Shown here in pieces: positions 4,384 to 16,366 of a DNA stretch of 64,000 nucleotides. Below the pieces are notes generated by a model. The model was not told the DNA's origin and searched no databases. It saw only the letters and a program-made list of their open reading frames with translations. The DNA comes from Alphaproteobacteria bacterium (GTDB lineage Bacteria > Pseudomonadota > Alphaproteobacteria > MPNO01 > UBA830): the NCBI GenBank assembly GCA_965214975.1, contig OZ244055.1, positions 1,430,994 through 1,494,993 of the forward strand, in the 5' to 3' direction. How positions within the stretch are numbered: position 1 is the stretch's first letter; each line of letters begins with the position of its first letter. Position numbers and translations under genes: made by a program.

Positions 4384-5268
4384 TCACCGCGGCCGATCCG
4401 GCGGAGCGGCGTCTCCGTCGAGCACGGAAACCTCCATCGCGCCGACGATCTCCAGCTCGCAGCGGAGCCGGTCGCCCGGCCGAAGGGGCCCGACGCCGCC
4501 CGGCACCCCCGTCGTGACGACATCGCCGGGGTAGAGCGTGCAGAACCTCGATGCACCGGCGATCAGTTCGCGGCAGCCGGAAGCCGGCATGGCGGCACCC
4601 GCCTCCCGGCGCGGCTCGCCGTTGACCAGGATCCTGAAACCCAGGCCGTCGGGATCCGCGATCTCGTCGGCCGTCGTCATCCACGGCCCGATGACCGCGT
4701 AGCCGTCCAGGGACTTGCGCAGGCTGCGGTCCTCGACGCCGCGCAGCGCGACGTCGAGACCGATGGCGTAGCCGGCCACGTGACCGAGGGCGTCTTCCGG
4801 AGCGACGTTCTTTCCGGCGCGACCGACGACGATCGCGAGCCCGACCCCGTGATCGTTGGGGCGGTCCGCGTGCCCGGGGGCAATCCCCTCCGCCGCCCCC
4901 GCCAGGGCCGAGGCCGCTCTCAGGAACAGGCCGCAGGCGGCGGCCGTCCGCCCCGGCTCGCCGGAGGCGGTTTCCGGACTCTCACGCGCTTCCCCGGCGC
5001 GGTCCGCGGGGTTCGCCCGCGTGCCGAGGATCTTGGTCGGATTCGCGACCGGGCTTCGCAAGGCCACGTTGGCGACGCCCTGCACGTATCCGGCTTTCTC
5101 GTGCACCGGGATCTCCCGGAGCACGGCGTCAAGACCGGCGATCAGCGGATCGCCCGGCGGAAAGGGCCAGCGCCGCTCGGGCAACACGTCGAGCGCGGCC
5201 GTGACATCGATCAGCTGGTCGCCCTTGACCAGGCCGAGCTTGTTCCTGTTGTACCTGCAAAGCCTCAA
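4384..5268 (-). CDS. Fumarylacetoacetate hydrolase (FAH) family protein; likely TTG start at 5268 (alternative ATG at 5301)
   Basis: C-terminal 290 aa align with the paralog at 6745..7599 (MKLCRF.. vs LRLCRY..), including GYAIGLD, RSLRK, LYPGD, TGTP/VPGGVGP motifs. ATG at 5301 confirmed by codon counting. Confidence 0.75.
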   Translation of the reverse strand: MRLCRYNRNKLGLVKGDQLIDVTAALDVLPERRWPFPPGDPLIAGLDAVLREIPVHEKAGYVQGVANVALRSPVANPTKILGTRANPADRAGEARESPETASGEPGRTAAACGLFLRAASALAGAAEGIAPGHADRPNDHGVGLAIVVGRAGKNVAPEDALGHVAGYAIGLDVALRGVEDRSLRKSLDGYAVIGPWMTTADEIADPDGLGFRILVNGEPRREAGAAMPASGCRELIAGASRFCTLYPGDVVTTGVPGGVGPLRPGDRLRCELEIVGAMEVSVLDGDAAPPDRPR

Positions 5269-6341
5269 GGGCCGAATTCCTCGCGGGCGCCGTCGGCCCA
5301 TTCGAGCCCGTGGCCCGGCCTGTCGGAAGGCCGGATGCGGGCCCCGGCGTCCATTTCCGCGGGCGCCGCGAACAGCGGCTCGAGAAGAGGAAAGTCCTCG
5401 AGCCACCGGACCGCCGGAGCCGCGGCCGCGAGGTGGACGAACAGCGCCGGCAGGAAATGCGGCGAGACGACAAGGCCGTGGTGCTCGGCGAGCTGGGCGA
5501 CCCGCAGGCATTCGGTGATGCCCCCCATCATCGCGAGGTCCGGCTGGACCACCGACAGGGTCCGCGCCCGCATCAGCGGACCGATCTCCTCGACCCCCTG
5601 ATGGTGCTCGCCGGCGGCCAGCGCCACCGGGCTCCGGCGCGCGAGCATCTCGAGGCCGTTCGCGTCGCGGGCGGGAAGAGGCTCCTCGAACCACAGTGCG
5701 CCGACCTCCCCGAGCGCGGCGGCCAGCCGCTCCGCGCTCACGAGATCGCACTTCTCGTTGGCGTCGGCCATGATTGCGACATGCTCGGGCAACGTGTCCG
5801 CGACGGCGCGGATGCGCGGGAGGTCGCCGGCGTCGCCCGCGACGCGCAGCTTGACGGCACGGCACCCGCGTCTCGCGTAGTGAAGCGCCCGTTCGGCCGC
5901 GGCCTCGGGATCCTGGGCGGGGCCGAAACCGCCGGAACCGTAGACCGGAAGGCTGCGGTGCTCCCCGCCGAGCGCGACCGCCAGCGGCACGCCGAGGCGC
6001 TTCGCGTGAAGATCCCACATTGCCAGGTCGATGGCGGCGATCGCGAGATAGCCGACGCCCCGGCCGAGCCGGTTGAGCGAACCGGCAAGACGCCGCCACA
6101 GTGCCTGCGGCGGCAGGATCCCCTCGTTCGCGACGAACCGTTCGAGGAGATCCCGCGCCATCGCCGCGACGGCGTCTCCGCCGCCGCCCAGCACGTAGGA
6201 AAACCCCGTTCCCTCGACGCCTTCGGAATCCTCCAGGGTCGCGACGATCACGTCGACCGAGGAGATCCCCGAACCTCCCGTCGGCCCCGAAAGCGGAAAG
6301 ACCCACAGTTCGGCTCCGGCGCGCGCGATCCTGCCGTTCAC
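5265..6341 (-). CDS. Mandelate racemase / muconate lactonizing enzyme family (enolase superfamily) protein, 358 aa
   Basis: KLRVAGD, ADANE and FEEP metal-ligand segments are present. GTG start at 6341 overlaps the upstream gene's stop (GTGA); the gene's own stop overlaps the downstream FAH start. Confidence 0.75.
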   Translation of the reverse strand: MNGRIARAGAELWVFPLSGPTGGSGISSVDVIVATLEDSEGVEGTGFSYVLGGGGDAVAAMARDLLERFVANEGILPPQALWRRLAGSLNRLGRGVGYLAIAAIDLAMWDLHAKRLGVPLAVALGGEHRSLPVYGSGGFGPAQDPEAAAERALHYARRGCRAVKLRVAGDAGDLPRIRAVADTLPEHVAIMADANEKCDLVSAERLAAALGEVGALWFEEPLPARDANGLEMLARRSPVALAAGEHHQGVEEIGPLMRARTLSVVQPDLAMMGGITECLRVAQLAEHHGLVVSPHFLPALFVHLAAAAPAVRWLEDFPLLEPLFAAPAEMDAGARIRPSDRPGHGLEWADGAREEFGP

Positions 6342-6745
6342 GGCCGGTCTTCGACGACCAGCGTCACCGTGTCGCCGTCCTCGATGCCGAGCGCGTCGCG
6401 CAAGCCGACTCCGGCGATCACCTCCACCTGCGCGGGCGGGTAGTTCTCGACGAGAGGCAGCACGATCGCGCCCTCGATCCGGCCGTCGACGATCACGGGC
6501 CAGCACTTGGCGTCGCAATCGTTCGGCCCGGTTCCGGGATTGTCGATCGCGACGGCGCCTTCGCGCTTGAGGCGAACCCATGCGGGCGCCGAATCCGGAT
6601 CGTCGACGATCACGTTGGCGGTGCCCGGATAGGGATCGATCCCGAGCTTGTCGACGAACTGGACCCGCGCCCAGTCGAGTCCGGTGAAGGTCTTGCCCCT
6701 GCCGATCCCGCTCGCGAGGCGGCCGACGAGTCGCGTCGAGGCCAT
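6338..6745 (-). CDS. DUF120 / archaeal CTP-dependent riboflavin kinase (RibK)-like cradle-loop-barrel domain protein, 135 aa
   Basis: SGIGRGKTF...PYPGTANV and EGAIVLP...IEDGDTVTL correspond to the GEG-YF, PY-GTLN and DGAIVVP...DGD motifs recalled from M. jannaschii RibK (recalled from memory, not checked). ATG 6745 overlaps the upstream stop (TGATG). Placed inside an FAH/MR operon. Confidence 0.55.
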   Translation of the reverse strand: MASTRLVGRLASGIGRGKTFTGLDWARVQFVDKLGIDPYPGTANVIVDDPDSAPAWVRLKREGAVAIDNPGTGPNDCDAKCWPVIVDGRIEGAIVLPLVENYPPAQVEVIAGVGLRDALGIEDGDTVTLVVEDRP

Positions 6746-7599
6746 CAGGCGGCCAGAACGGAAACGTCCATGCGGCCGATGCCCTCGCAGTGGCAACGCA
6801 TCACGTCCCCGGGAACGACCGGCCCGACGCCTTCGGGCGTGCCGGTCATGATGACGTCGCCCGGATGGAGCGTGTAGAAGCTCGACCCGTAGGCAACGAG
6901 TTTCCTGCAATCGAAGATCAGCTTGTCCGTGTTCGAGTGCTGCCGTTCCTCCCCGCCCACGTGAAGCGAGAAATCCAGGTGGTCGGGATCGGCGATCTCG
7001 TCGGCCGTGACCAGCCACGGCCCCAGAACGGAATAGCTGTCGATGGCCTTGCGCAGGCTCCGCTCCTCGGTTCCGCGCACCGTCATGTCGAGACCGATCG
7101 CGTAGCCCGCCACGTGGTCCAGGGCGTCCTCGTACGCCACGTTCTTGGCGGTTTTCCCGATCACCATGGCAAGCTCGACCTCGTGATCGTTGCGGCGGTC
7201 CGTGAAGTGCAGGCGCACGCCCTCCCCAGGCCCGACGAGCACCGGATTCTTGAGAAACAGCCCGTATTCGTCGATCGTCTTGATCTCCCGCCCGAAGCTC
7301 ACCCCCTCGTCCGCGATCGATTCCTCCTTGTGCGCGTGGTAGTTGACAGGCGCTCCGATCACCTTCGTGGGATTGGCGACCGGACTCTTGAGGGCGACAT
7401 CCCCGACGCCGCGACGATCGCCGGAGGAGGCGAGTTCCTGCGCTCTGGCGCGCACGGCATCGAGGTTCGAGACGAGCGCGTCGCCCCTGGGCCAGGGCCA
7501 GCGGGCGGGAGGAATCTCCTCCAGCGCCCCGGTCACGTCCACGATCTCGTCGCCCTCCACGAGGCCGAGCCGGTCGGCATCGAAACGGCAGAGTTTCAT
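6745..7599 (-). CDS. Fumarylacetoacetate hydrolase (FAH) family protein, 284 aa
   Basis: SD GGAGGAG sits before ATG 7599. Carries the same FAH-family motif set as the 4384..5268 paralog (GYAIGLD, RSLRK, LHPGD, TGTPEGVGPV). Confidence 0.8.
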   Translation of the reverse strand: MKLCRFDADRLGLVEGDEIVDVTGALEEIPPARWPWPRGDALVSNLDAVRARAQELASSGDRRGVGDVALKSPVANPTKVIGAPVNYHAHKEESIADEGVSFGREIKTIDEYGLFLKNPVLVGPGEGVRLHFTDRRNDHEVELAMVIGKTAKNVAYEDALDHVAGYAIGLDMTVRGTEERSLRKAIDSYSVLGPWLVTADEIADPDHLDFSLHVGGEERQHSNTDKLIFDCRKLVAYGSSFYTLHPGDVIMTGTPEGVGPVVPGDVMRCHCEGIGRMDVSVLAA

Positions 7600-7926
7600 C
7601 CTCTTCTCCTCCCGGAAACGGCGTCCGATCTCTCGTGGACGCGGAAAAAACGAACTGTTGCACCGACAAGGCGCCGCCGGAACCCTTCGCGGACGGTCCC
7701 CGGCACGGCACCGCGCCATTGTAGCGGGGACGTGTGCGGACTCAAGAAGTCCCGACCCCGGGAAGCGTCTGTGCGGGGTCTTCCGGCCCCGTCAGGCGCC
7801 GCCGATCCTTCGCCGCCGGTGTCGACCGCACGGCGGCGGGGCGCCCTCCACGGTGGAACCTTGCCCCACGCCGGGGGTTCGGCGGCTTGACCGTCGTCCG
7901 GCGGAACGTAGAATGGTTTTCGGGTC

Positions 7927-8000
7927 GCGGGTGTAGCTCAATGGCAGAGCAGGAGCTTCCCAAGCTCAAGATGAGGGTTCGATTCCCTTCACCCGCTCCA
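7927..8000 (+). tRNA. tRNA-Gly (anticodon CCC), 74 nt with encoded CCA
   Basis: Cloverleaf read by hand. Acceptor GCGGGTG/CACCCGC with discriminator T and CCA. D-arm GCTC-AATGGCA-GAGC. Anticodon loop TTCCCAA. T-arm GAGGG-TTCGATT-CCCTT. One G-A mismatch at the top of the anticodon stem. Confidence 0.85.
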
Positions 8001-8275
8001 GCATGCTCACCTCCGCGCCGGACGCCGTTCGCGATCCCGGGACCGTCGCGCGGACGGCGGTGTTTCCTCCCCGCGCCAACCGCAAGACCGGCTTTGGCCA
8101 CGCCATGCGTTGACGCGCGGCAGGGCAGACCGGCTGCATGGACTCCTGAGCCAGCCGGCGGTCCGGCGAGCGCACCCGGCAACGGCGGGTCGCTGAGAAG
8201 CCCGGCGAGCCCACCGCGGACAAGGGCCGCCAGCCGCTTCTCGCTCCTGTCGGCGGCCTTCGGTGGGGTTCGCGG

Positions 8276-8593
8276 TCAAACCGGGACTTCGATGCACACC
8301 CCCGCCTCCGCCTGATCGAAGGTAGCGCGAATACGCTCCACATGTTGTCGAATACGCGGCCAAGATGCGGCGAGCAGTACAATGACCGCGAATTGTCTGC
8401 CGTCCAGATTCTGCTGGTAGCGAAGGTTCCGGTCTGTGGTGACCAAGAGTTCATAACCTTCCGCGTCGGCGCGATCGAGCAGCTCGCCGTTGCGTAGTTC
8501 CGACCATCCCCGTTCGAAGGCGGTGTCCACCACATGACCAGGCAAATGCCGGCGCAGAGGGGCGGGCACGCCTTGATCGAACAGAATCTTCAA
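8276..8593 (-). CDS. DUF5615-type (PIN-like / Mut7-C-like) putative toxin, ~105 aa, TTG start overlapping the upstream stop
   Basis: Small protein directly downstream of, and overlapping (TTGA), a DUF433 gene. This pairing is typical of DUF433/DUF5615 toxin-antitoxin-like modules. GC is lower than the core. Confidence 0.5.
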   Translation of the reverse strand: MKILFDQGVPAPLRRHLPGHVVDTAFERGWSELRNGELLDRADAEGYELLVTTDRNLRYQQNLDGRQFAVIVLLAASWPRIRQHVERIRATFDQAEAGVCIEVPV

Positions 8594-8814
8594 GAAGCAT
8601 GCTCCATCAGCCCTCGAGTCTCGTGGTCGAAAACGCTTTCGATATGCCAGCGTTCGACGCCAGGAAACCATTCCAGAAACTGTTCGATCGTGGCCCCGTC
8701 CCTAAGGTTCTCGAACAGCGCGGCGACGGGCACGCGAGTACCGCGAAAGACCCAGACGCCGCTGACCTTGCCGGGATCGCTTTCCACGGCAGGGCAGGTG
8801 GTCCATGAAATCAT
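8590..8814 (-). CDS. DUF433 domain protein (74 aa), putative antitoxin-like partner
   Basis: 74-aa ORF with an ATG start. Sits immediately upstream of the small DUF5615-like ORF in a TA-like arrangement. Confidence 0.5.
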   Translation of the reverse strand: MISWTTCPAVESDPGKVSGVWVFRGTRVPVAALFENLRDGATIEQFLEWFPGVERWHIESVFDHETRGLMEHAS

Positions 8815-8835
8815 GAGTTCATCTCCCTCCGGAAA

Positions 8836-9330
8836 TCAGACCTTCATTGACCAGCCCGGTCGGCGCTCGACTGGTCGGGCTCCGTTGGCAATGCGGAGGC
8901 CGCCTCCCGCAAGTCGGATTCGCCGGTTACCGCCTCGGCGATCAGGTGCATGATCCCGAGGGCGGAGGCTGTGTAGCGCCTTCCGAAACCTGCGTACAAT
9001 TAGTCCCTTCGCCCACAACGCACATCGGCCAACCTCTTCAACTTCGCGTACAAGCAAATCTCCTCGCCGAACCGTATAGCGTTTACGTTCGGTCGGAAGA
9101 ACATCCATCTTGGGAAAGTCGTCGACGTTGATCCGATCCCACTGGATCTCAATATCCCTAAGGCAAGGAAGCAAGTGCGCGCCTGCGATCCGATCGATGC
9201 CGAGCATCTTGCCAAGACCCTGAGAGCACCCGCAATGAAGGAGGGTGACCTTCCAATGCGACGGTACCGGTCCTAGCCACATGACTCCAGAATCCTTCAT
9301 CGACGGGTGGGGCTTGAGAGCATCGATCAA
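8836..9330 (-). pseudogene. Possible type I restriction HsdS target-recognition-domain fragment (164-aa ORF, TTG start overlapping the DUF1524 stop)
   Basis: GVMWLGPVPSHWKVTLL and RKRYTVRRGDLLVREVEEVG resemble the LPEGWEW..LG opening and GDIL..G block of HsdS TRDs, but the ORF is too short for a full HsdS. Lowest-GC stretch of the window (~50%). Confidence 0.3.
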
Positions 9331-9911
9331 GACTCAGCTTCCTGCGCCAATCGCTCAGGGCTCCAAATCTGCCCGGCGAGCTGCTGGTACAGGTTCTGGC
9401 GTGCGTTCAGGTCATCCTTATGGAACTGGGAATGTGCCTTGAAGGGCAGCGCACTCCTACGCACGAACTGATCGAAGCCGGGATCACGCTTATAGGCGTC
9501 CTCATGGAGGCTCTGAGCCAGCAGGTTCTGTTTGAGATAATGCTTGCGTTTGTCAACGTAGGGGATGGCGCCATAACTGGCATTGAAGCTCTTGGGCACA
9601 AGCAGCAGACCCCCGATTCGGTTGCGGTATTCGGAAAAGTCCGCGGAATGCGAAAAATCTTCGGTGTGACGCTCAGGGTGATCGGCCCAAATGTGTTCGA
9701 TCTCGAATCTCTTCTTTCCGTGCCGCTGTACGTACTCGTGATAACGCGAGGCACGTCCTGAACGCGTCTCAACATAGTCCGTCATCCGAGCAAGCAGGCG
9801 GTGGACTTGCCGTCTATTGGTGCCGTGTAGCTGGAATCGATCGTTTGTGATGAAGGTTTCGCTTTCTGCCGCAAGGCGCTCTCCGAGCATCTCAACAAGG
9901 GGCCGGCGCAT
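9327..9911 (-). CDS. DUF1524 (GmrD-like His-Me finger nuclease) protein; ATG 9911 (alternative GTG 9977)
   Basis: KKRFEIEHIWADHPERH ... NRIGGLLLVPKSFNASYG is the DUF1524 signature. The N-terminus overlaps the 3' end of the DUF262 gene in another frame. Confidence 0.6.
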   Translation of the reverse strand: MRRPLVEMLGERLAAESETFITNDRFQLHGTNRRQVHRLLARMTDYVETRSGRASRYHEYVQRHGKKRFEIEHIWADHPERHTEDFSHSADFSEYRNRIGGLLLVPKSFNASYGAIPYVDKRKHYLKQNLLAQSLHEDAYKRDPGFDQFVRRSALPFKAHSQFHKDDLNARQNLYQQLAGQIWSPERLAQEAES

Positions 9912-11178
9912 CTTTGCCCCGAATATCGCGCATGACCAGAAACATGGCGTACTGCATGGTCGAGTAGCCGATAGCACGGAAATTCCAAATTCGTCGCGTA
10001 ATCAAGATGTCGAGATACGCTGCTACAATACGCAGCTTTCGCAGAAGATCCCGCTCACCGTCGTCGCGTCGCAAGGGTGCCAGGAGAACAGGGTATTGCA
10101 ATGTAAAGTTATTCTGGGCGCAATAATGGATCGCCTCTAAACCATCCGTTAGAGTCTCTGCTGCTTGACGTAGACGTGAATACCAATGGCCATAGAAGCA
10201 AAAGTCCTCTTCAATGAAGCGGGCGAAGTCGTTCCCCGATGACAGTCCAAGTGGTTCTTGGTTGTCGCGGACCCAGCGATGAAATTCGGTGCCTATGAGG
10301 TCGAAATCTCGCGGTTTGCCACCTCGCTTTCGCTCGCGGATGCTTTTCGCGTGCTGGCTGCGTAGCCACCCCTTGATGGCGTCAGCGATGGCGTCAGTTT
10401 CCTCCTCCTTCCCAAGATCTTGCAGACTGCTCACGTGCTTGCGCCAAAGTCGATTTGCCTTATTGCGACGCTCGCCATCGTCAATATGCGCCAAGAGATA
10501 TCCCTTGAGCATGTCGGCGGGCGTAAGCGAGAGTCCTCGGTCGTTCATAGTCTCAAAGATGGTGTAGGCGTCCGCGTCCGAATAGGCGGTGATTTCGACC
10601 AGGTAGACATTCTCGATTAGCCAATCCGAGAAATAGGGAAGAGCATCATTGACAAGATCTTCGGGAAAGTGCTCCTCAACATCCTCGAACCGCCGGAAAA
10701 TGTTGGTGACCGACTCGGACTGTCCTGCTGCTTCTATATCTGTCATATCCGCTTTGAACAGCGCGTCCATGCACACTGACCGCTCGTCGACATCAATGTT
10801 GAAAGAGCGCTGACCGAATCTTTGCGAGTAAATCAGGTCAGAAAGTTGGTGCCTCTCTTGATCATCATCGATTTGTCGATATATATAAATAAGAAGGAGT
10901 GTGAGGGTTGTTAGTCTCTGCTGGCCATCAATTATGAATTTTTGCCCCTCTTTATCGCTGATGATGATGGACCCCAAGAAGTAATGGCCGTAATCCTGAA
11001 CGCCCTTGCGGGAATCGCCAGGTTTGTAGCTATCCCGAAATTTTTCCGTGAGATCACCTATCAGCTCTGCAACTTGCTTGGTCTGCCAGCGGTATTCGCG
11101 TTGATAGTAGTCGATGGCGTATTTGGCACCGCCGAGCAGTGAACGCAGGTTCTTTGTATCGCCACGAATCTCTTTCAC
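9892..11178 (-). CDS. DUF262 (GmrS-like, ParB-nuclease-fold) protein, ~428 aa, GTG start with AGGGGAAG SD
   Basis: Hallmark IIDGQQRLTTL motif. N-terminal YAIDYYQREYRWQ (DUF262 opening). GTG 11178 is preceded at 8 nt by AGGGGAAG. Low-GC codon usage. Confidence 0.7.
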   Translation of the reverse strand: MKEIRGDTKNLRSLLGGAKYAIDYYQREYRWQTKQVAELIGDLTEKFRDSYKPGDSRKGVQDYGHYFLGSIIISDKEGQKFIIDGQQRLTTLTLLLIYIYRQIDDDQERHQLSDLIYSQRFGQRSFNIDVDERSVCMDALFKADMTDIEAAGQSESVTNIFRRFEDVEEHFPEDLVNDALPYFSDWLIENVYLVEITAYSDADAYTIFETMNDRGLSLTPADMLKGYLLAHIDDGERRNKANRLWRKHVSSLQDLGKEEETDAIADAIKGWLRSQHAKSIRERKRGGKPRDFDLIGTEFHRWVRDNQEPLGLSSGNDFARFIEEDFCFYGHWYSRLRQAAETLTDGLEAIHYCAQNNFTLQYPVLLAPLRRDDGERDLLRKLRIVAAYLDILITRRIWNFRAIGYSTMQYAMFLVMRDIRGKDAPAPC

Positions 11179-11428
11179 GGTCTGCTTCCCCTGTGATGTC
11201 GCCGAGCAACCCCTCGGTCTTCTTCTCAAGCGCCAGGATGTCGGCGCGAATCTCCTCCAGCGTCCGTATGGGCTGGAGCTCGTTGAAGTAGCGGTTGAGG
11301 AAGCCTCTCCCGTCGGTAAGCCGCGCGCAGAGCGTGGCCGGAACAGTCGATCAGCCCGTCCGTGGTCAAGACGCGCGTGCAGACCGTGTTCTCGATCCGC
11401 AACCTGCCTTCCGTCGCGCCGTCTCCGG

Positions 11429-11962
11429 TCACGGCTTCCTCGCGACCACGTGAAAGATGTGCCAGTGCTTCGGCTCGGCCCGCAGCGTCAGGCTGTCCTC
11501 CTCCTCTTCGTCGAAGAGCTCGACGTCCAGCCCCTCGAGCAGACGCTCGGCTTCGGACCGCGAGAGACTGGTGATGCCGCGCCTCTCGGCCCAGCTGTCC
11601 CGCTCCCCGTAGAGCTGCCCCGAGAAACGGCCGCCCGGGCGCAGCGCCGCGACGACCTTCCGCCAGACCCCGCCGAAGGCCGACGGCGGACAGAGCGGCA
11701 GCGAAAAGCTCGCGTTCACCAGATCGCAGGGCGGCAACGTGATGTCCTCGTGGCGGCTGACCTGCGTCGTGAGCGCCACTCCGTCGGGCAGATCGTCCCG
11801 GATCCGCAGCGCTTCTATGGCCTCCTCGAACGCGTCGGCCGCAAGGGTCGGCCAGCCCCTGCGCAGGATCTCGATCGTGTCGCGCCCCGCCCCGCAACCG
11901 AGATCGACCGCGAGGGCGGGGTCGGGACGCCCTTCCGTGTCGAAGGCGTCGAGAGCGCGCAT
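11429..11962 (-). CDS. Class I SAM-dependent methyltransferase (177 aa)
   Basis: Motif I VDLGCGAGRDT near the N-terminus, acidic motif II (DAFEEA) and a motif-IV-like LRPGG. Confidence 0.6.
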   Translation of the reverse strand: MRALDAFDTEGRPDPALAVDLGCGAGRDTIEILRRGWPTLAADAFEEAIEALRIRDDLPDGVALTTQVSRHEDITLPPCDLVNASFSLPLCPPSAFGGVWRKVVAALRPGGRFSGQLYGERDSWAERRGITSLSRSEAERLLEGLDVELFDEEEEDSLTLRAEPKHWHIFHVVARKP

Positions 11963-12026
11963 CAGCGTCGCACGAGGCGGGAGGCCCCGGGTTTTCGCGA
12001 AATACGCGACCCAGGCCTTTCCGCGC

Positions 12027-12839
12027 TCAGAGGAAATTCTGCCCCCCGTCCACGATCATGCCCTGTCCGGTGATGTAGGCGGCCTCGTCGGAGCACAGGA
12101 ACAGCATCGCCTTGGCGAGATCGTGAATCGTCCCCTGCCGAGGCATGCACTGCGTCTCGGTCATCTTCGCGAACATCTCGCGCGGGACCGACGGCCGCTC
12201 GATCTCGGTCTGCATGACGCCCGGCCAGAACGTGTTCACCGTGATGCCGTGGGGTCCGAGCTCGCGCGCCATGGAGCGCGTCATGCCGATCATCGCCGAC
12301 TTGGTGGTGATGTAGTGCAGATAGTTCACGCGGCCCAGCATCGTCGTCCCCGAGGAGATGTTGACGATCCGGCCCCACTTCGCCTCGATCATGTGGCGGA
12401 CCACGGCCCGCGAGCACCAGAAGGCGCCGTTGACGTTGACGTCGACGGCCCGCAGCCACTCGTCTCCGGGGAGCTCCCAGAACGGGGCCATCGTGATCCT
12501 GGAAAAGACCGCCGCGTTGTTGATCAGGACGTCGATCCGGCCGAACTCGGACATGGTCGCCGCCGCCATCCCCTTCGCCGATGACTCGACGGCGACGTCA
12601 ACCTCCAGGGGAAGAGCCCGTCCGCCCTTGGCCTCGATCTCCTTCGCGACCCGGCCCGCGTTCCCGCCGTCGATGTCCGCGACGACCGGTATCGCCCCCT
12701 GCGCCGCGAAATAATGCGCGTAGCCTCTGCCGATGCCCTGTCCGCCGCCCGTGACGATCACGACGCGATCCCGCAGGCTCTCGTAGACCACGTTCTTGTC
12801 GACCTCGATTTCCGAGTAGTCTATGTTGCCGATGTCCAT
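12027..12839 (-). CDS. Short-chain dehydrogenase/reductase (SDR) family oxidoreductase
   Basis: TGGGQGIG cofactor motif, NNAA, and catalytic S...YxxxK (YITTKSAMIGMT). Start taken at MDIG (ATG 12839); ATG 12866 is an alternative. Confidence 0.75.
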   Translation of the reverse strand: MDIGNIDYSEIEVDKNVVYESLRDRVVIVTGGGQGIGRGYAHYFAAQGAIPVVADIDGGNAGRVAKEIEAKGGRALPLEVDVAVESSAKGMAAATMSEFGRIDVLINNAAVFSRITMAPFWELPGDEWLRAVDVNVNGAFWCSRAVVRHMIEAKWGRIVNISSGTTMLGRVNYLHYITTKSAMIGMTRSMARELGPHGITVNTFWPGVMQTEIERPSVPREMFAKMTETQCMPRQGTIHDLAKAMLFLCSDEAAYITGQGMIVDGGQNFL

Positions 12840-13580
12840 CAACGGATCTCTCCCCGGTTGCACCACGATTCGTCTTCCAGTCTAGACGTCCGCAGGGCGA
12901 TCCGAAAGCGGGAACCGGGCGCGCCGGCGGTCGACGGCGCCGGGAAGGCTCTCGAGGCCGTCGTCGGCGAGCCCCTCGCGCGACGCGACGCCACCGTCTC
13001 CGCGAGGCGGTCCCCGCGAGTCCCGAAGGTGCCGGAAGCCGTCGCGACGGGGTGCGCGACCCCGGGCGGCGGAAGAGCGCCCGCGTGCTGCCGATGCCGG
13101 GGATCGGGAAGAAACGCCAACCCCGCCGTTTCCTCTCCGGCGACATGACGGCGCGACGCGCCGGACGGCACGTGCCGGCCCGCATCCCGCGTTCCCGGAG
13201 CGGCTCGGGCGCATCCCTGCCGGCGCCTCTCGGCAGCGTCGACAGCAACCCCTCGCAACGCGCCCCGTCCGCAGGCTCGGCGCCAGCCCGAGCCCCGGAT
13301 TCTCCGGGGTTCCGCGTCCGCGAAGCGGCCGGACCGGGAACCCTCGGCGGCGGTCACCGGGAACGGCGGGCCGGCAGGCTTCCGCATCGAAACGCCGACT
13401 CCCGTCGGGGAGCCGCAGGCAGCACGCGAATCGCGGAAGGCGCTTCCGCGAAAGCGTCCTGCAGGGAACGCGGGCGTTCCGCCAGCCGATGGCGGACGGG
13501 CCCGGACGGGGGAGCGCGGCCGCCCGTCCGCGGAGCGCCGGAACTCCCTCGGCGGCTCCGGAAGCCGTCCCGGCGCCGCG

Positions 13581-14798
13581 TCAGACGGTTTCCTCGGAAC
13601 GAAGCCGGGCGAGTTCGCGTTCATCGAGGCCGAGCCATTCGCGCAGCACGCCGTCGGTGTCTTCCCCGAGCCTCGGCGGCGCCAGCCTGTAGTCCACCGG
13701 GGTCTCCGAGAACCGCATCGGGCTTCCGATCAGCGCGACCTCTCCCGCGAGTTCGTGGGGCATGCGGACGACCATTTCCCGCGCCTTGACGTGGGGGTTG
13801 TCGAACACCGCCCGGAGGTCGTTGATGGGGCCGCAGCCGATCTTGCGTTCCTCGAGTCCCTCGAGCCACTCCGCCGAGGGTCTGGACGCCAGGATCTCCC
13901 GCAGCACCGGCAGCAGCCTGTCGCGGTTGCGCACCCTCGCGTCGTTGGCGGCGTAGTCCGGATCGTCGGCAAGGTCCGGCCGCCCCGCAAGCTCGCAGAA
14001 CTTGCGGAACTGCCCGTCGTTTCCGATCGCCACGATGATGTGTCCGTCGGCCGTCGGGAAAGGCTGGTAGGGGACGATGTTGGGGTGCGCGTTGCCGAGC
14101 CGGCCGAGCGACCCGCCGTGCAGGTAGTTCATGCCCGCGTTGGCCAGCATGGCGACCGTGGTGTCCATCATGCCGATGTCGATGTGCTGCCCGTTGCCGT
14201 CGGTCGCAGCGTGGCGCAAGGCCGCGCAGACGGCGACGGCGGCGTACATGCCGGCCATCAGGTCGGCGATCGGCACCCCCACCTTCTGGGGTTCGCCGTC
14301 GGCCTCGCCGGTGATCGACATCAGGCCGCCCATCCCCTGCAGCAGAAAGTCGTAGCCCGGGCGCTTCGCGTAGGGCCCGGTCTGGCCGAAACCGGTCACG
14401 GAACAGTAGACGAGCCGCGGATTCAGGTCTTTCAGGTCGTCGTAGCCCAGGCCGTAGCGGGCGAGATCGCCGGTCTTGAAGTTCTCGACGAGACAGTCCG
14501 CCTCGGCGGCGAGCCGGCGCGCGAGTCCGGAGCCGCCGGGCCTGGAGATGTCCAGGGCGACGGACCTCTTGTTGCGGTTGGCCCCCATGAAATACGCGCT
14601 CTCGCCCGTCTCCCCGCCCTCGCCGTCACGGACGAACGGCGGCGCGAACTTCCGCGTGTCGTCGCCCGAGCCCGGACGCTCGATCTTGACGACATCCGCG
14701 CCCAGATCGCCGAGAATCTGCGTGCAGGCCGGCCCCGCAAGGACGCGGGTCAGGTCGAGAACCCTGACGCCCCGCAGCGGACCGGACGCCCCGGTCAC
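13581..14798 (-). CDS. CoA-transferase family III (CaiB/BaiF) protein, 405 aa, GTG start
   Basis: GPLRGVRVLDLTRVLAGP N-terminus and conserved GADVVKIE, NRNKRS, CSVTGFGQTGP blocks. GTG 14798 with GGAGGAG SD overlaps the upstream gene's stop. Confidence 0.8.
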   Translation of the reverse strand: MTGASGPLRGVRVLDLTRVLAGPACTQILGDLGADVVKIERPGSGDDTRKFAPPFVRDGEGGETGESAYFMGANRNKRSVALDISRPGGSGLARRLAAEADCLVENFKTGDLARYGLGYDDLKDLNPRLVYCSVTGFGQTGPYAKRPGYDFLLQGMGGLMSITGEADGEPQKVGVPIADLMAGMYAAVAVCAALRHAATDGNGQHIDIGMMDTTVAMLANAGMNYLHGGSLGRLGNAHPNIVPYQPFPTADGHIIVAIGNDGQFRKFCELAGRPDLADDPDYAANDARVRNRDRLLPVLREILASRPSAEWLEGLEERKIGCGPINDLRAVFDNPHVKAREMVVRMPHELAGEVALIGSPMRFSETPVDYRLAPPRLGEDTDGVLREWLGLDERELARLRSEETV

Positions 14799-16366
14799 GA
14801 CGCCTCTCCTCCTTCGGCGAGCGTCGCGTCGACGCCGAGTCCGGGAAAGTGCTCCGCCCTGAACGAGGACCAGGCGACCGGATCCTCGCTCGAACCGTCG
14901 TCGAGCTCGAGGTCGAACACCACCTCCCCCGGCCGCCCCGGCGTGACCTCCACCCACCGCGCCCGGCAATGGGATTCGAAGGGGGTCGTCGACGGCTCTC
15001 CGTCCGCGCTGCAGAGACCGCCGTAGGTGACGAAGGTGTTGCCCGTTCCGGGCAGCCTGAACGCTCCGCCCTGGAAGCACGCGAACTCCGCGTCGTCCGC
15101 GGAACGGGTTTCCCAGACCTGTCGAACCGTTCCCGCGTCCTCGTCCACGGCGAATTCCACGGCCCGGCTGTAGCTTTCGGGCCCGGACATCCTCTCGTCG
15201 AACGGACTGGCGCGATGGTTGCCGTTGTCGAAGCACAGGAAGGTGCCGCCGCCGGTGACGGAGCAGTCGTGCTGGTGGTACTGCCACTCCGTTCCGGACG
15301 CGGGCGCGAGCAGACGCCCCTTCCACGGATCCCGCCAGTTCGCATGCGTCCCCAGGATCCATTTCAGGCGGCCCGAGGAGCGGTCGACCTTGACCAGGCA
15401 GTCCTGGTGGCGAACCGACACCACCAGACTGTCGTCCCTGCCGTCATGCGCAAGGCCGTTGACGTGGGTCCAGTCGCAGGTGTCCGCGTACCCCCGCCGC
15501 ACCCAGTAGTCGCTCAGGCTGTCGTAGCCGACACGCAGCGGATCCAGGATGTCGAGAAGCGGATGGCGGTTCACCACGGCGCCGTCGCGGGCGAACTCGA
15601 CGATCACGTCGCCGACGACCCGGGAGGTGGCCGTTCCGGCTTCCGGGTCGACGTCCGATGCCGGAAAGCCGTCGATGTCGCGGATCTCCATGCCGCAGAC
15701 GACGAGATTGCCGGAAGGGAGTTCCACGACCCCGTGATGGAACATCTCGGTGTCCACCTCGACCGAGTCTTCCGGAAGCCCCCTGCCCTTCCAGCGTCCG
15801 GCCGCATGCCAGTCGCCGACGACGGTTCCCAGAAGATCGATCTCCCGCAGCCGCCCGTCGGTCATGAACAGAACGTTGCCGTTGGCGAGCCGGCGGATGT
15901 CGCCGACCGCTTCGTCCACCCTGCAGGACCAGACGATCTCGCCGAAACGGTCGACGGCAACCATCAGCCCGAAACCCTCCCGATCCTCCGACCCCGGGGC
16001 ATGCCGGACGTTGAACATCATCGCGCCCGGCTCCCGTCTTTCCGGAACGCACGACCGGAGTCTGAACGGCGGAAAGTCGTCCGGCATCGGCGGGGTGGCG
16101 AAGGTCAGGGGGCGGCCGGCGATTCGCGTGCCGCCATCGGCGGTCTCCGCCCGCACCGCGATCTCGTGGACCGCCCCGAAGCGAAGACCGAGCAGCGGAA
16201 TCCGGTGAGCGGCGGCCGGCCCGGCCTCGAAACGCCTCGCGTGCCGGCCGTCCGCGACCTCGACGATCGCCCGCGACGGCATGTCGGTGGAGAATTCCAC
16301 GACGGCCGCCAGCGGCACGTTCTCGTTGGGGCCGGGAACCACTGCCGGAGTCGTCTCGAACCTCAT
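14795..16366 (-). CDS. Arylsulfate sulfotransferase (ASST) family beta-propeller protein, ~523 aa
   Basis: Length plus repeated HHG/HD..W..G propeller segments (WQYHQHDCSV, THVNGLAHD, FHHGVVELPSGN) typical of ASST. ATG 16366 with GGGAGGGGAG SD; the stop overlaps the CoA-transferase start. Confidence 0.55.
   Translation of the reverse strand: MRFETTPAVVPGPNENVPLAAVVEFSTDMPSRAIVEVADGRHARRFEAGPAAAHRIPLLGLRFGAVHEIAVRAETADGGTRIAGRPLTFATPPMPDDFPPFRLRSCVPERREPGAMMFNVRHAPGSEDREGFGLMVAVDRFGEIVWSCRVDEAVGDIRRLANGNVLFMTDGRLREIDLLGTVVGDWHAAGRWKGRGLPEDSVEVDTEMFHHGVVELPSGNLVVCGMEIRDIDGFPASDVDPEAGTATSRVVGDVIVEFARDGAVVNRHPLLDILDPLRVGYDSLSDYWVRRGYADTCDWTHVNGLAHDGRDDSLVVSVRHQDCLVKVDRSSGRLKWILGTHANWRDPWKGRLLAPASGTEWQYHQHDCSVTGGGTFLCFDNGNHRASPFDERMSGPESYSRAVEFAVDEDAGTVRQVWETRSADDAEFACFQGGAFRLPGTGNTFVTYGGLCSADGEPSTTPFESHCRARWVEVTPGRPGEVVFDLELDDGSSEDPVAWSSFRAEHFPGLGVDATLAEGGEAS

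Follow-up and report, generated by a model that had tools for sequence, protein, structure and literature searches.

A probable relic of a type I restriction-modification operon with embedded GmrSD and DUF433/DUF5615 modules beside tRNA-Gly(CCC) in an alphaproteobacterial genome

A stretch of 64 kb from an Alphaproteobacteria bacterium (assembly GCA_965214975.1, contig OZ244055.1, positions 1,430,994 to 1,494,993 of the forward strand), hereafter the window, was analysed for an islet of low guanine-cytosine (GC) content next to a tRNA-Gly(CCC) gene, where a GmrSD-family gene, a predicted DUF433/DUF5615 toxin-antitoxin pair and probable remnants of a type I restriction-modification (R-M) operon were found. 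The tRNA-Gly(CCC) gene itself was intact (7927-8000, plus strand; ARAGORN, and Rfam tRNA with 67.9 bits), and five open reading frames (ORFs) on the minus strand read toward it. In the original prediction, made from the letters alone, these had been named as DUF262, DUF1524, HsdS target-recognition-domain-like, DUF433 and DUF5615 frames, and Pfam and PADLOC models matched each of them: GmrSD_N/DUF262 at 9892-11229 (Pfam PF03235, E 9e-35), GmrSD_C/DUF1524 at 9327-9977 (Pfam PF07510, E 8e-10), the type I specificity subunit Specificity_I at 8836-9330 (PADLOC, E 2e-16), DUF433 at 8590-8814 (Pfam PF04255, E 1e-13) and DUF5615 at 8276-8671, the last one barely above the cutoff (Pfam PF18480, E 4e-5, 24.0 bits vs. 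23.8). The first three junctions had been given as overlapping by 4-20 nt. True overlaps of 4 nt were found between GmrSD and hsdS (9327-9330) and between DUF433 and DUF5615 (8590-8593), while hsdS and DUF433 did not overlap, and the 20-nt overlap proved to be a frameshift inside one gene.

That gene is formed by the DUF262 and DUF1524 ORFs, which had been taken for a GmrS/GmrD type IV pair and which, as judged from the alignments, are instead a single-chain GmrSD-family gene of ~610 aa (9327-11178, minus strand, GTG start at 11178) broken by a frameshift. A 1-nt insertion in the run of four G at 9899-9902 left an ORF of 428 aa (9892-11178) and a possible second one of 194 aa (9327-9911); on the coding strand, the DNA alignment showed one extra C at this run, which was lacking in the homologues. 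Since the first ORF continues to its stop at 9892 and the second frame begins with an in-frame ATG at 9911, both ORFs appeared to overlap by 20 nt. When the DUF262 ORF (window product P0001, 428 aa) was used as the query of a homologue search and the best 120 matches were taken (69-82% identity), more than 110 of them were single proteins of 608-611 aa with both PF03235 and PF07510, the C-terminal domain being absent in four of these 120 closest homologues (P0001, P0040, P0073 and P0088). The closest intact homologue, P0002 from locus L024, aligned in tblastn as two segments in adjacent frames, with residues 1-420 on 11178-9901 and residues 421-610 on 9899-9330, both being 82% identical to the window. 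A two-gene gmrS/gmrD arrangement was thus not found as a conserved state of the lineage; nor did the window copy have both domains in one uninterrupted chain, where the insertion could be an assembly error. Programmed frameshifting at the split was also considered and rejected, as the sequence GCC CCU UGU UGA has neither a slippery heptamer nor a prfB-like CUU-UGA and the homologues are without the extra base.

The DUF262 motifs QR, DGQQR and FxxxN were present in P0001 as 'YQREYRW', 'IIDGQQRLTTL' and 'IFETMNDRG', and the His-Me finger motif of DUF1524 was kept as 'FEIEHIWADHPERH ... SFNASYG'. Conservation was evaluated on an alignment of 81 homologues, in which 193 columns were at least 97% conserved. 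The window GmrSD was changed at 8 of these 193 columns, the mean of the other 80 homologues being 2.0 ± 1.7 (maximum 9). Furthermore, relative-rate comparisons with the outgroups L032 and L036 gave 41-53 unique changes in the window lineage vs. 21-28 in the sisters L024 and L025 (P-values of 0.003-0.011), and the control comparison of L024 with L025 was balanced. The excess of the window lineage was not significant when the more distant L053 served as outgroup, and a larger contrast was obtained with L030, which may not be a true outgroup. Overall, these data point to a relaxed constraint on GmrSD in the window lineage. Moreover, about 10 neighbouring core genes aligned to their orthologues without any frame change, so the assembly does not appear to be generally indel-ridden, and the frameshift is probably real. 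The GmrSD enzyme is probably inactive or impaired. Solved structures were only distantly similar to it (SspE, E 1e-3; other DUF262 proteins, E 9e-8 over ~80 residues), none of them being close enough to extend the Pfam assignment, and its best PADLOC models were HEC-06 (E 1e-34) and Orf5.

Remnants of three hsd genes were recognized around GmrSD, all of them on the minus strand. The hsdM 3′ stub (11179-11296) retained the last ~37 codons of 660 and has lost its stop to a 1-nt deletion close to the end; residues 620-656 of the 660 of L024 HsdM matched 11299-11189 at 81% identity (tblastn), and the C-terminus reads 'NRYFNELQPIRTLEEIRADILALEKKTEGLLGDI' in the window vs. 'NRYFYKPQPMRTLEEIRADILALEKETEGLLEDI' in L024. 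A doubt on the hsdM reading of 11189-11299, raised by blastn homology to relatives that continued past the stop of the adjacent methyltransferase gene to ~11280-11310, was dropped after the alignments, in which the codons of a host aldolase extend as far as 11297 and give way to the hsdM tail at 11296. The HsdS-like fragment kept its match to type I specificity subunits, and it corresponds to a decayed hsdS from which ~330 internal codons are missing, with ~110 N-terminal and ~35 C-terminal codons remaining of ~490 (full-length HsdS of relatives has 460-493 aa). Its 5′ remnant (9016-9330), which covers the N-terminus and some of the first target-recognition domain, has a TTG start that overlaps the GmrSD stop by 4 nt and was matched by residues 1-110 of L024 and L030 HsdS (tblastn). 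Its 3′ remnant (8844-8948), comprising the C-terminal conserved helix and the tail, stands in a different frame and was matched at 8945-8874 by HsdS residues 438-462 of L030 and 439-459 of L024, reading 'LIAEAVTGESDLREAASALP' (tblastn). Finally, the hsdR 5′ stub (8144-8260) holds approximately codons 1-39 of ~1000, the remainder being deleted. Residues 4-39 of L024 HsdR matched 8251-8144 at 53% identity (tblastn), the stub matched the 5′ end of L024 hsdR in blastn (E 3e-5), and its local alignment score of 73 was ~7 standard deviations above the mean of 34.3 ± 5.4, none of 500 shuffles having reached it. In addition, the stub lies 15 nt past the DUF5615 stop, with the same spacing as in L028. 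Complete copies of hsdM, hsdS and hsdR were lacking here, no other hsd genes were found within the 64-kb window, and the type I activity is presumably dead.

The two remaining genes of the islet encode a predicted antitoxin of the DUF433/COG2442 family (8590-8814, minus strand, 74 aa), with a GGAGGGAG ribosome-binding site upstream, and a predicted PIN-like toxin of the DUF5615/COG4634 family and the Mut7-C group (8276-8593, minus strand, 105 aa, TTG start). Both genes look intact, and the stop of the former and the start of the latter share the 4 nt TTGA. The DUF433 product was 77% identical to that of L028, and residues 1-105 of the DUF5615 product were 71% identical to the L028 gene. A total of 1806 homologues of DUF5615 were found, nearly all of 105 aa and up to 73% identical, and none of 29 conserved columns was changed in the window. 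Moreover, in each of L026-L030 a DUF433 gene immediately preceded that of DUF5615, and the pair was kept as a unit in unrelated contexts, among housekeeping genes in L026 and L027 and inside type I operons in L028, L029 and L030. The toxin-antitoxin-like character that had been proposed for the pair was upheld by these results, as a small antitoxin gene lies upstream of a ~105-aa PIN-like gene and overlaps it, both matching their family models. This predicted pair looks like the sole part of the islet that is fully intact, and it probably still works. The hsdS deletion ends 30 bp upstream of the pair and the hsdR truncation begins ~130 bp downstream, and the pair may resist deletion, its addictive nature being a possible explanation for deletions that stop just short of it on both sides.

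Intact relatives of the operon were found on other contigs. Locus L024 presented the order hsdM (660 aa), GmrSD, hsdS, DarT, Macro and hsdR, with 4-nt overlaps, and L025 followed the same order through Macro, after which insertion sequence (IS) elements appeared. The loci with the closest DUF5615 homologues, L028 and L029, had hsdM, an AAA_13 ATPase, hsdS, DUF433, DUF5615 and hsdR. In turn, the best metagenome match, L030, presented hsdM, GmrSD, hsdS (491 aa) and DUF433 up to the contig end, which is the order of the window, and was 73% identical to it at the DNA level over 2056 nt (11298 down to 9248), with the homology starting exactly at 11298. Hence, the ORFs that had been seen as a compact assortment of cargo appear to be the middle of a single type I R-M operon in which hsdM, hsdS and hsdR are truncated or internally deleted. 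The closest relatives lay in mobile contexts on unrelated contigs, with a TrwC relaxase and IS elements in L025 and replication genes in L024.

The gaps between the hsd genes were surveyed in the type I operons of the GmrSD clade (L024, L025, L028, L030, L032, L036, L053, L057, L076, L094, L096 and L099). The hsdM-hsdS gap contained GmrSD, or the AAA_13 ATPase in L028. The hsdS-hsdR gap was either empty or occupied by 0.7-3.2 kb of varied cargo, namely DarT-Macro, DUF433-DUF5615, a nucleotidyltransferase pair, Peptidase_M78 with DUF4411 (PIN-like), Fic/DOC, Schlafen AlbA_2, an FRG domain, a UvrD-like helicase with DUF2290, and pPIWI-associated-nuclease domains. As far as gene order can tell, the operon clade shows a two-slot cargo architecture, with one slot between hsdM and hsdS and another between hsdS and hsdR that receives diverse toxin-like modules, and this comparison set could supply candidate defence genes.

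The insertion site was then compared with that of related genomes, found by scanning species-representative genomes with the FAA-hydrolase family gene that flanks the tRNA (6745-7599, minus strand; Pfam PF01557, E 6e-49), the scan having found uncultured Alphaproteobacteria/Rhodospirillales metagenome-assembled genomes (MAGs). Orthologues of this gene (74-84% identical) adjoin tRNA-Gly(CCC) in five relatives (L001, L002, L003, L004 and L006), and the 3′ half of the window tRNA is the same as in L001, L002 and L004. On the other side, the islet is flanked by a core gene for an S-adenosylmethionine (SAM)-dependent methyltransferase (11429-11962, minus strand; Pfam Methyltransf_25/12/11), with 63-69% identical orthologues at the same position in L001-L004. 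In the two closest relatives, L001 and L002 (FAA hydrolase 84% identical), the order was a short-chain dehydrogenase/reductase (SDR) gene, the methyltransferase, a class II aldolase of 250 aa (Aldolase_II PF00596, E 5e-32 in L001), 6 bp and tRNA-Gly, without any of the islet genes. L004 has an additional gene of 445 aa with a methyltransferase domain, inserted after the aldolase and before the tRNA, and in L006 unrelated genes occupy the flank. In L003, an AAA-ATPase/PDDEXK_9 gene replaces the 5′ part of the aldolase and the tRNA is duplicated, with two tRNA-Gly(CCC) copies in tandem ~100 bp apart at the syntenic site (L003:9275-9525); this duplication and the loss of the aldolase 5′ part are further evidence of a recombination-prone tRNA flank.

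The islet genes were therefore absent from the syntenic locus in all five related genomes, where an intact aldolase or other cargo was present, and a search of the relatives for the same genes at the same locus with a core-like GC was negative. Because the relatives have the methyltransferase, the aldolase and tRNA-Gly without the islet, or carry other cargo at the same flank, the horizontal acquisition of the islet at a variable tRNA-flanking spot is supported by these comparisons, in agreement with what had been proposed, and the defence-related nature of the cargo was borne out as well. The boundary on the high-coordinate side, which had been left open, could be placed at 11296/11297, where the hsdM tail is fused to the remains of the aldolase and the host gene is destroyed. 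The aldolase 5′ stub (11297-11432, minus strand) comprises ~45 codons with a 1-nt indel, ~205 codons having been lost, and was recognized by tblastn with residues 1-34 of the L001 aldolase and by DNA alignment with L001, L002 and L004. Only ~2 nt (TC) at the aldolase::hsdM junction were common to both parental sequences, which fits illegitimate rather than site-specific recombination. In total, the foreign block spans at least 8144-11296 (3.15 kb), and ~620 bp of host DNA were lost.

On the tRNA side, the hsdR stub and the tRNA are separated by a spacer of 143 bp with 73% GC (8001-8143), in which neither blastn nor tblastx gave any match above GC-rich noise among 109 loci compared, and which showed no homology to the tRNA-distal flank in the relatives; this spacer may be what remains of an island end now lost. 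A 3′ remnant of the aldolase was looked for beside the tRNA and none was found. As had been stated before, neither an integrase nor a direct repeat of the tRNA 3′ end was detected in the window. In particular, the last 18 or 25 nt of the tRNA had no match in the whole window with up to three mismatches, so that the search for a degenerate copy was also negative, and the direct-repeat search gave chance-level pairs only. Every gene within 5265-15362 was accounted for as core or islet, none of them being an integrase near the tRNA, and a tyrosine-recombinase probe had no match in the window, although this was a test of low sensitivity. Regarding signals of expression, the consensus scan for a promoter or terminator of the islet itself gave only the promoter of the tRNA and one plus-strand hairpin, both at chance level, the promoter-like site for tRNA-Gly being at 7887-7914. 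Rfam detected no RNA family besides the tRNA over 7000-12500.

The GC content was computed in windows of 400 bp (mean 0.694, standard deviation 0.047), and values below 0.60 were confined to ~8300-11400 within the 64 kb, with a minimum of 0.46 at 10601. The dip that had been reported next to the tRNA is real, but it does not start immediately after the gene, as positions 8001-8275 have 73-77% GC and the onset is at ~8300. Moreover, the islet exceeds the dip, adding the high-GC stubs of hsdM (11179-11296) and hsdR (8144-8260). At third codon positions, the GC content (GC3) was 0.58-0.68 in GmrSD, hsdS and the toxin-antitoxin pair of the window vs. 0.86-0.91 in the flanking core genes, and 0.89 and 0.77 in the hsdM tail and the hsdR stub, respectively. 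The intact operons of L024 and L025, also of high GC, had GC3 values of 0.61-0.70 for GmrSD and hsdS and of 0.93 for hsdM, which suggests that GmrSD and hsdS travel between operons as a cassette of separate origin. The GC3 of hsdM, hsdR and DarTG in the operons of L024 (10001-13311) and L025 (10001-13212) was 0.81-0.93.

Taken together, 8144-11296 (minus strand) very probably represents what erosion has left of the core of a type I operon that was acquired horizontally, had the order hsdM-GmrSD-hsdS-DUF433-DUF5615-hsdR and carried two passenger modules within it. Sequence comparison showed the gene order, the stubs, the frameshift, the intact pair and the absence from relatives, and the islet is, by this reading, a relic and not a working defence islet. 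As read from the sequence comparison, the DNA came in next to tRNA-Gly(CCC), on the side of the methyltransferase gene, where related genomes vary in content, probably within a larger island at the tRNA flank that later suffered deletions; a direct illegitimate insertion of a ~3-kb fragment would be the alternative. Later deletions removed nearly all of hsdM together with ~205 aldolase codons, giving rise to the hsdM::aldolase fusion, took ~330 codons out of the interior of hsdS and left hsdR with no more than ~40 codons, and the 1-nt insertion split GmrSD. An integrase or an attachment repeat, if there was any, would have been lost with the deleted flanks. Residual expression would probably occur by read-through from the upstream methyltransferase gene on the same strand, since the minus strand gave no promoter-like site in the scan. 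According to published knowledge of the families, in the intact operon HsdM2S would methylate a bipartite target and HsdR2M2S would cut unmethylated DNA, GmrSD, as a type IV nuclease dependent on modification, would cover phages escaping by cytosine hypermodification, and the toxin-antitoxin pair would stabilise the locus or abort infection (type I, GmrSD and DUF433/PIN-like module roles from PMC4619093, PMC11411939, PMC2701414 and PMC5499597).

Some points weigh against this decayed-operon account. The GC dip is a signature of GmrSD and hsdS, whose GC3 is low even in the intact L024 and L025, and not of the whole islet or the edges of the acquired DNA, which is also the reason why the boundaries of the original prediction were too short. 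The 143 bp at 8001-8143 match neither the relatives nor the operon homologues, and the route of entry is a reconstruction, the integrase, the attachment repeat and the sequence of the second junction not having survived. Furthermore, GmrSD has no further stop or frameshift across 610 codons and keeps all its signature motifs, including the EIEH...N nuclease motif, so its inactivation, if real, would be recent, or both halves would remain under selection. The contig of 3.8 Mb is probably a long-read one, as is typical of MAG assemblies of this kind, and the insertion in a homopolymer run of 4 bases could be an assembly error; GmrSD would then be an intact single-chain protein that serves as an orphan type IV enzyme, with the toxin-antitoxin pair next to it in an otherwise decayed type I operon, and HEC-06-type GmrSD proteins have been reported to act alone (PMC11411939). 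However, the ~10 neighbouring core genes are free of frameshifts, indels cluster in the islet and the stubs (hsdM tail and aldolase stub), and the amino-acid substitution rate is about doubled vs. two of three independent outgroups, which fits a lost constraint. An artefact at this position was considered rather doubtful.

The frameshift may also be accepted and the two halves taken for a true GmrS/GmrD pair as in E. coli CT596, within a compact working defence islet with the toxin-antitoxin pair and a stray HsdS fragment. The domain signatures are indeed kept in both halves, the in-frame ATG of the second ORF at 9911 lies 20 nt before the stop of the first one, which makes translational coupling conceivable, and two-chain systems such as GmrS with GmrD and TgvA with TgvB are known to work (PMC4619093, PMC11411939). 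Against it, more than 110 of the 120 closest homologues have the single-chain form of 608-611 aa, the split falls at an extra base in a homopolymer and not at a conserved gene boundary, conserved sites carry too many changes in the window lineage, only a weak ribosome-binding sequence (GGGG) precedes the ATG and the surrounding operon is demonstrably decayed, all of which make a working pair unlikely. A bolder version, in which the relic would still be alive, with the insertion as a natural fission yielding a working two-subunit enzyme that recapitulates GmrS and GmrD, expression by read-through that starts in the host methyltransferase gene and crosses the aldolase::hsdM junction, and DUF433/DUF5615 as an anti-deletion anchor, was regarded as decidedly improbable; such an anchor would account for three independent deletions stopping within 15-130 bp of the pair. 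Lastly, the block might be ancestral at the locus and lost from the relatives, whose history is thinly sampled, with only five syntenic genomes and the closest at 84% identity in the flanking protein. Nevertheless, the block interrupts a class II aldolase gene of which L001, L002 and L004 have intact copies, its GC3 falls short of the core-gene values by 0.2-0.3, and its own closest relatives (L025 and L024) are in mobile contexts on unrelated contigs, and an ancestral origin is extremely improbable.

A GmrSD inside a type I operon presumably gives complementary cover of modified and unmodified DNA. The architecture is already known, and the window adds a decayed member to it. Homologues of GmrSD inside type I loci have been documented by Machnicka et al. 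2015, for RloF of Campylobacter jejuni and for TgvAB in VPI-2 of Vibrio cholerae (PMC11411939, PMC4619093), where a DUF262/DUF1524 type IV-like nuclease gene likewise lies inside the hsd operon. However, RloF is located between hsdS and hsdR while the window GmrSD lies between hsdM and hsdS, TgvAB is made of two proteins while the window GmrSD is ancestrally a single chain of 610 aa, and the type I operon of the window is reduced to stubs. The same mix of modules as in the window, that is, a DUF433-type antitoxin, a PIN-like toxin of the Mut7-C group, type I subunits and a single-chain GmrSD, was described for an operon of Belliella baltica with DUF433-PIN_10, HsdM, HsdS and GmrSD (Matelska et al. 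2017, PMC5499597, section 17). This likeness comes from the published description, and the toxin is COG4634/DUF5615 in the window and PIN_10 in Belliella baltica, the window copy being decayed. Moreover, Eco94GmrSD, BrxU, SspE and PADLOC HEC-06 have DUF262 as an N-terminal NTPase/sensor domain with QR, DGQQR and FxxxN together with the His-Me nuclease of DUF1524, as in the window GmrSD; Eco94GmrSD, BrxU and SspE are single-chain, whereas the window reading frame is interrupted.

The pair can also be compared with DarTG, likewise a two-gene toxin-antitoxin module, which in the closest intact relatives (L024, L025 and L099) holds the same slot between hsdS and hsdR. It differs in protein families and in chemistry, DarT being a DNA ADP-ribosyltransferase countered by a macrodomain antitoxin, while in the window a PIN-like nuclease is predicted, together with a DNA-binding antitoxin of the DUF433 family. 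The COG2442(DUF433)-PIN family was predicted as a type II toxin-antitoxin family (Makarova et al. 2009, PMC2701414), and both this family and VapB45-like antitoxins present a small DUF433 gene upstream of a ~105-aa PIN-like gene and overlapping it, as in the window. The DUF433-PIN-like pair is also found alone among housekeeping genes, as in L026, and no experimentally tested member of the DUF5615 subgroup was found in the literature examined.

By itself the finding matters little, serving as a textbook case of a defence locus that would have arrived at a tRNA-flanking hotspot and then eroded together with a host class II aldolase. As for annotation, the 'GmrS' and 'GmrD' ORFs become one frameshifted gene and the 'HsdS-like' ORF becomes a pseudogene, and the stubs of hsdM, hsdR and the aldolase explain DNA that would otherwise be non-coding. 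Outside the islet, the relatives presented a second FAA-hydrolase paralogue, 57-64% identical and located ~1.5 kb downstream of the first one (L001:12339-13193, syntenic in L002-L005), which is matched in the window at 4423-5262; this second copy is an ordinary metabolic gene duplication.

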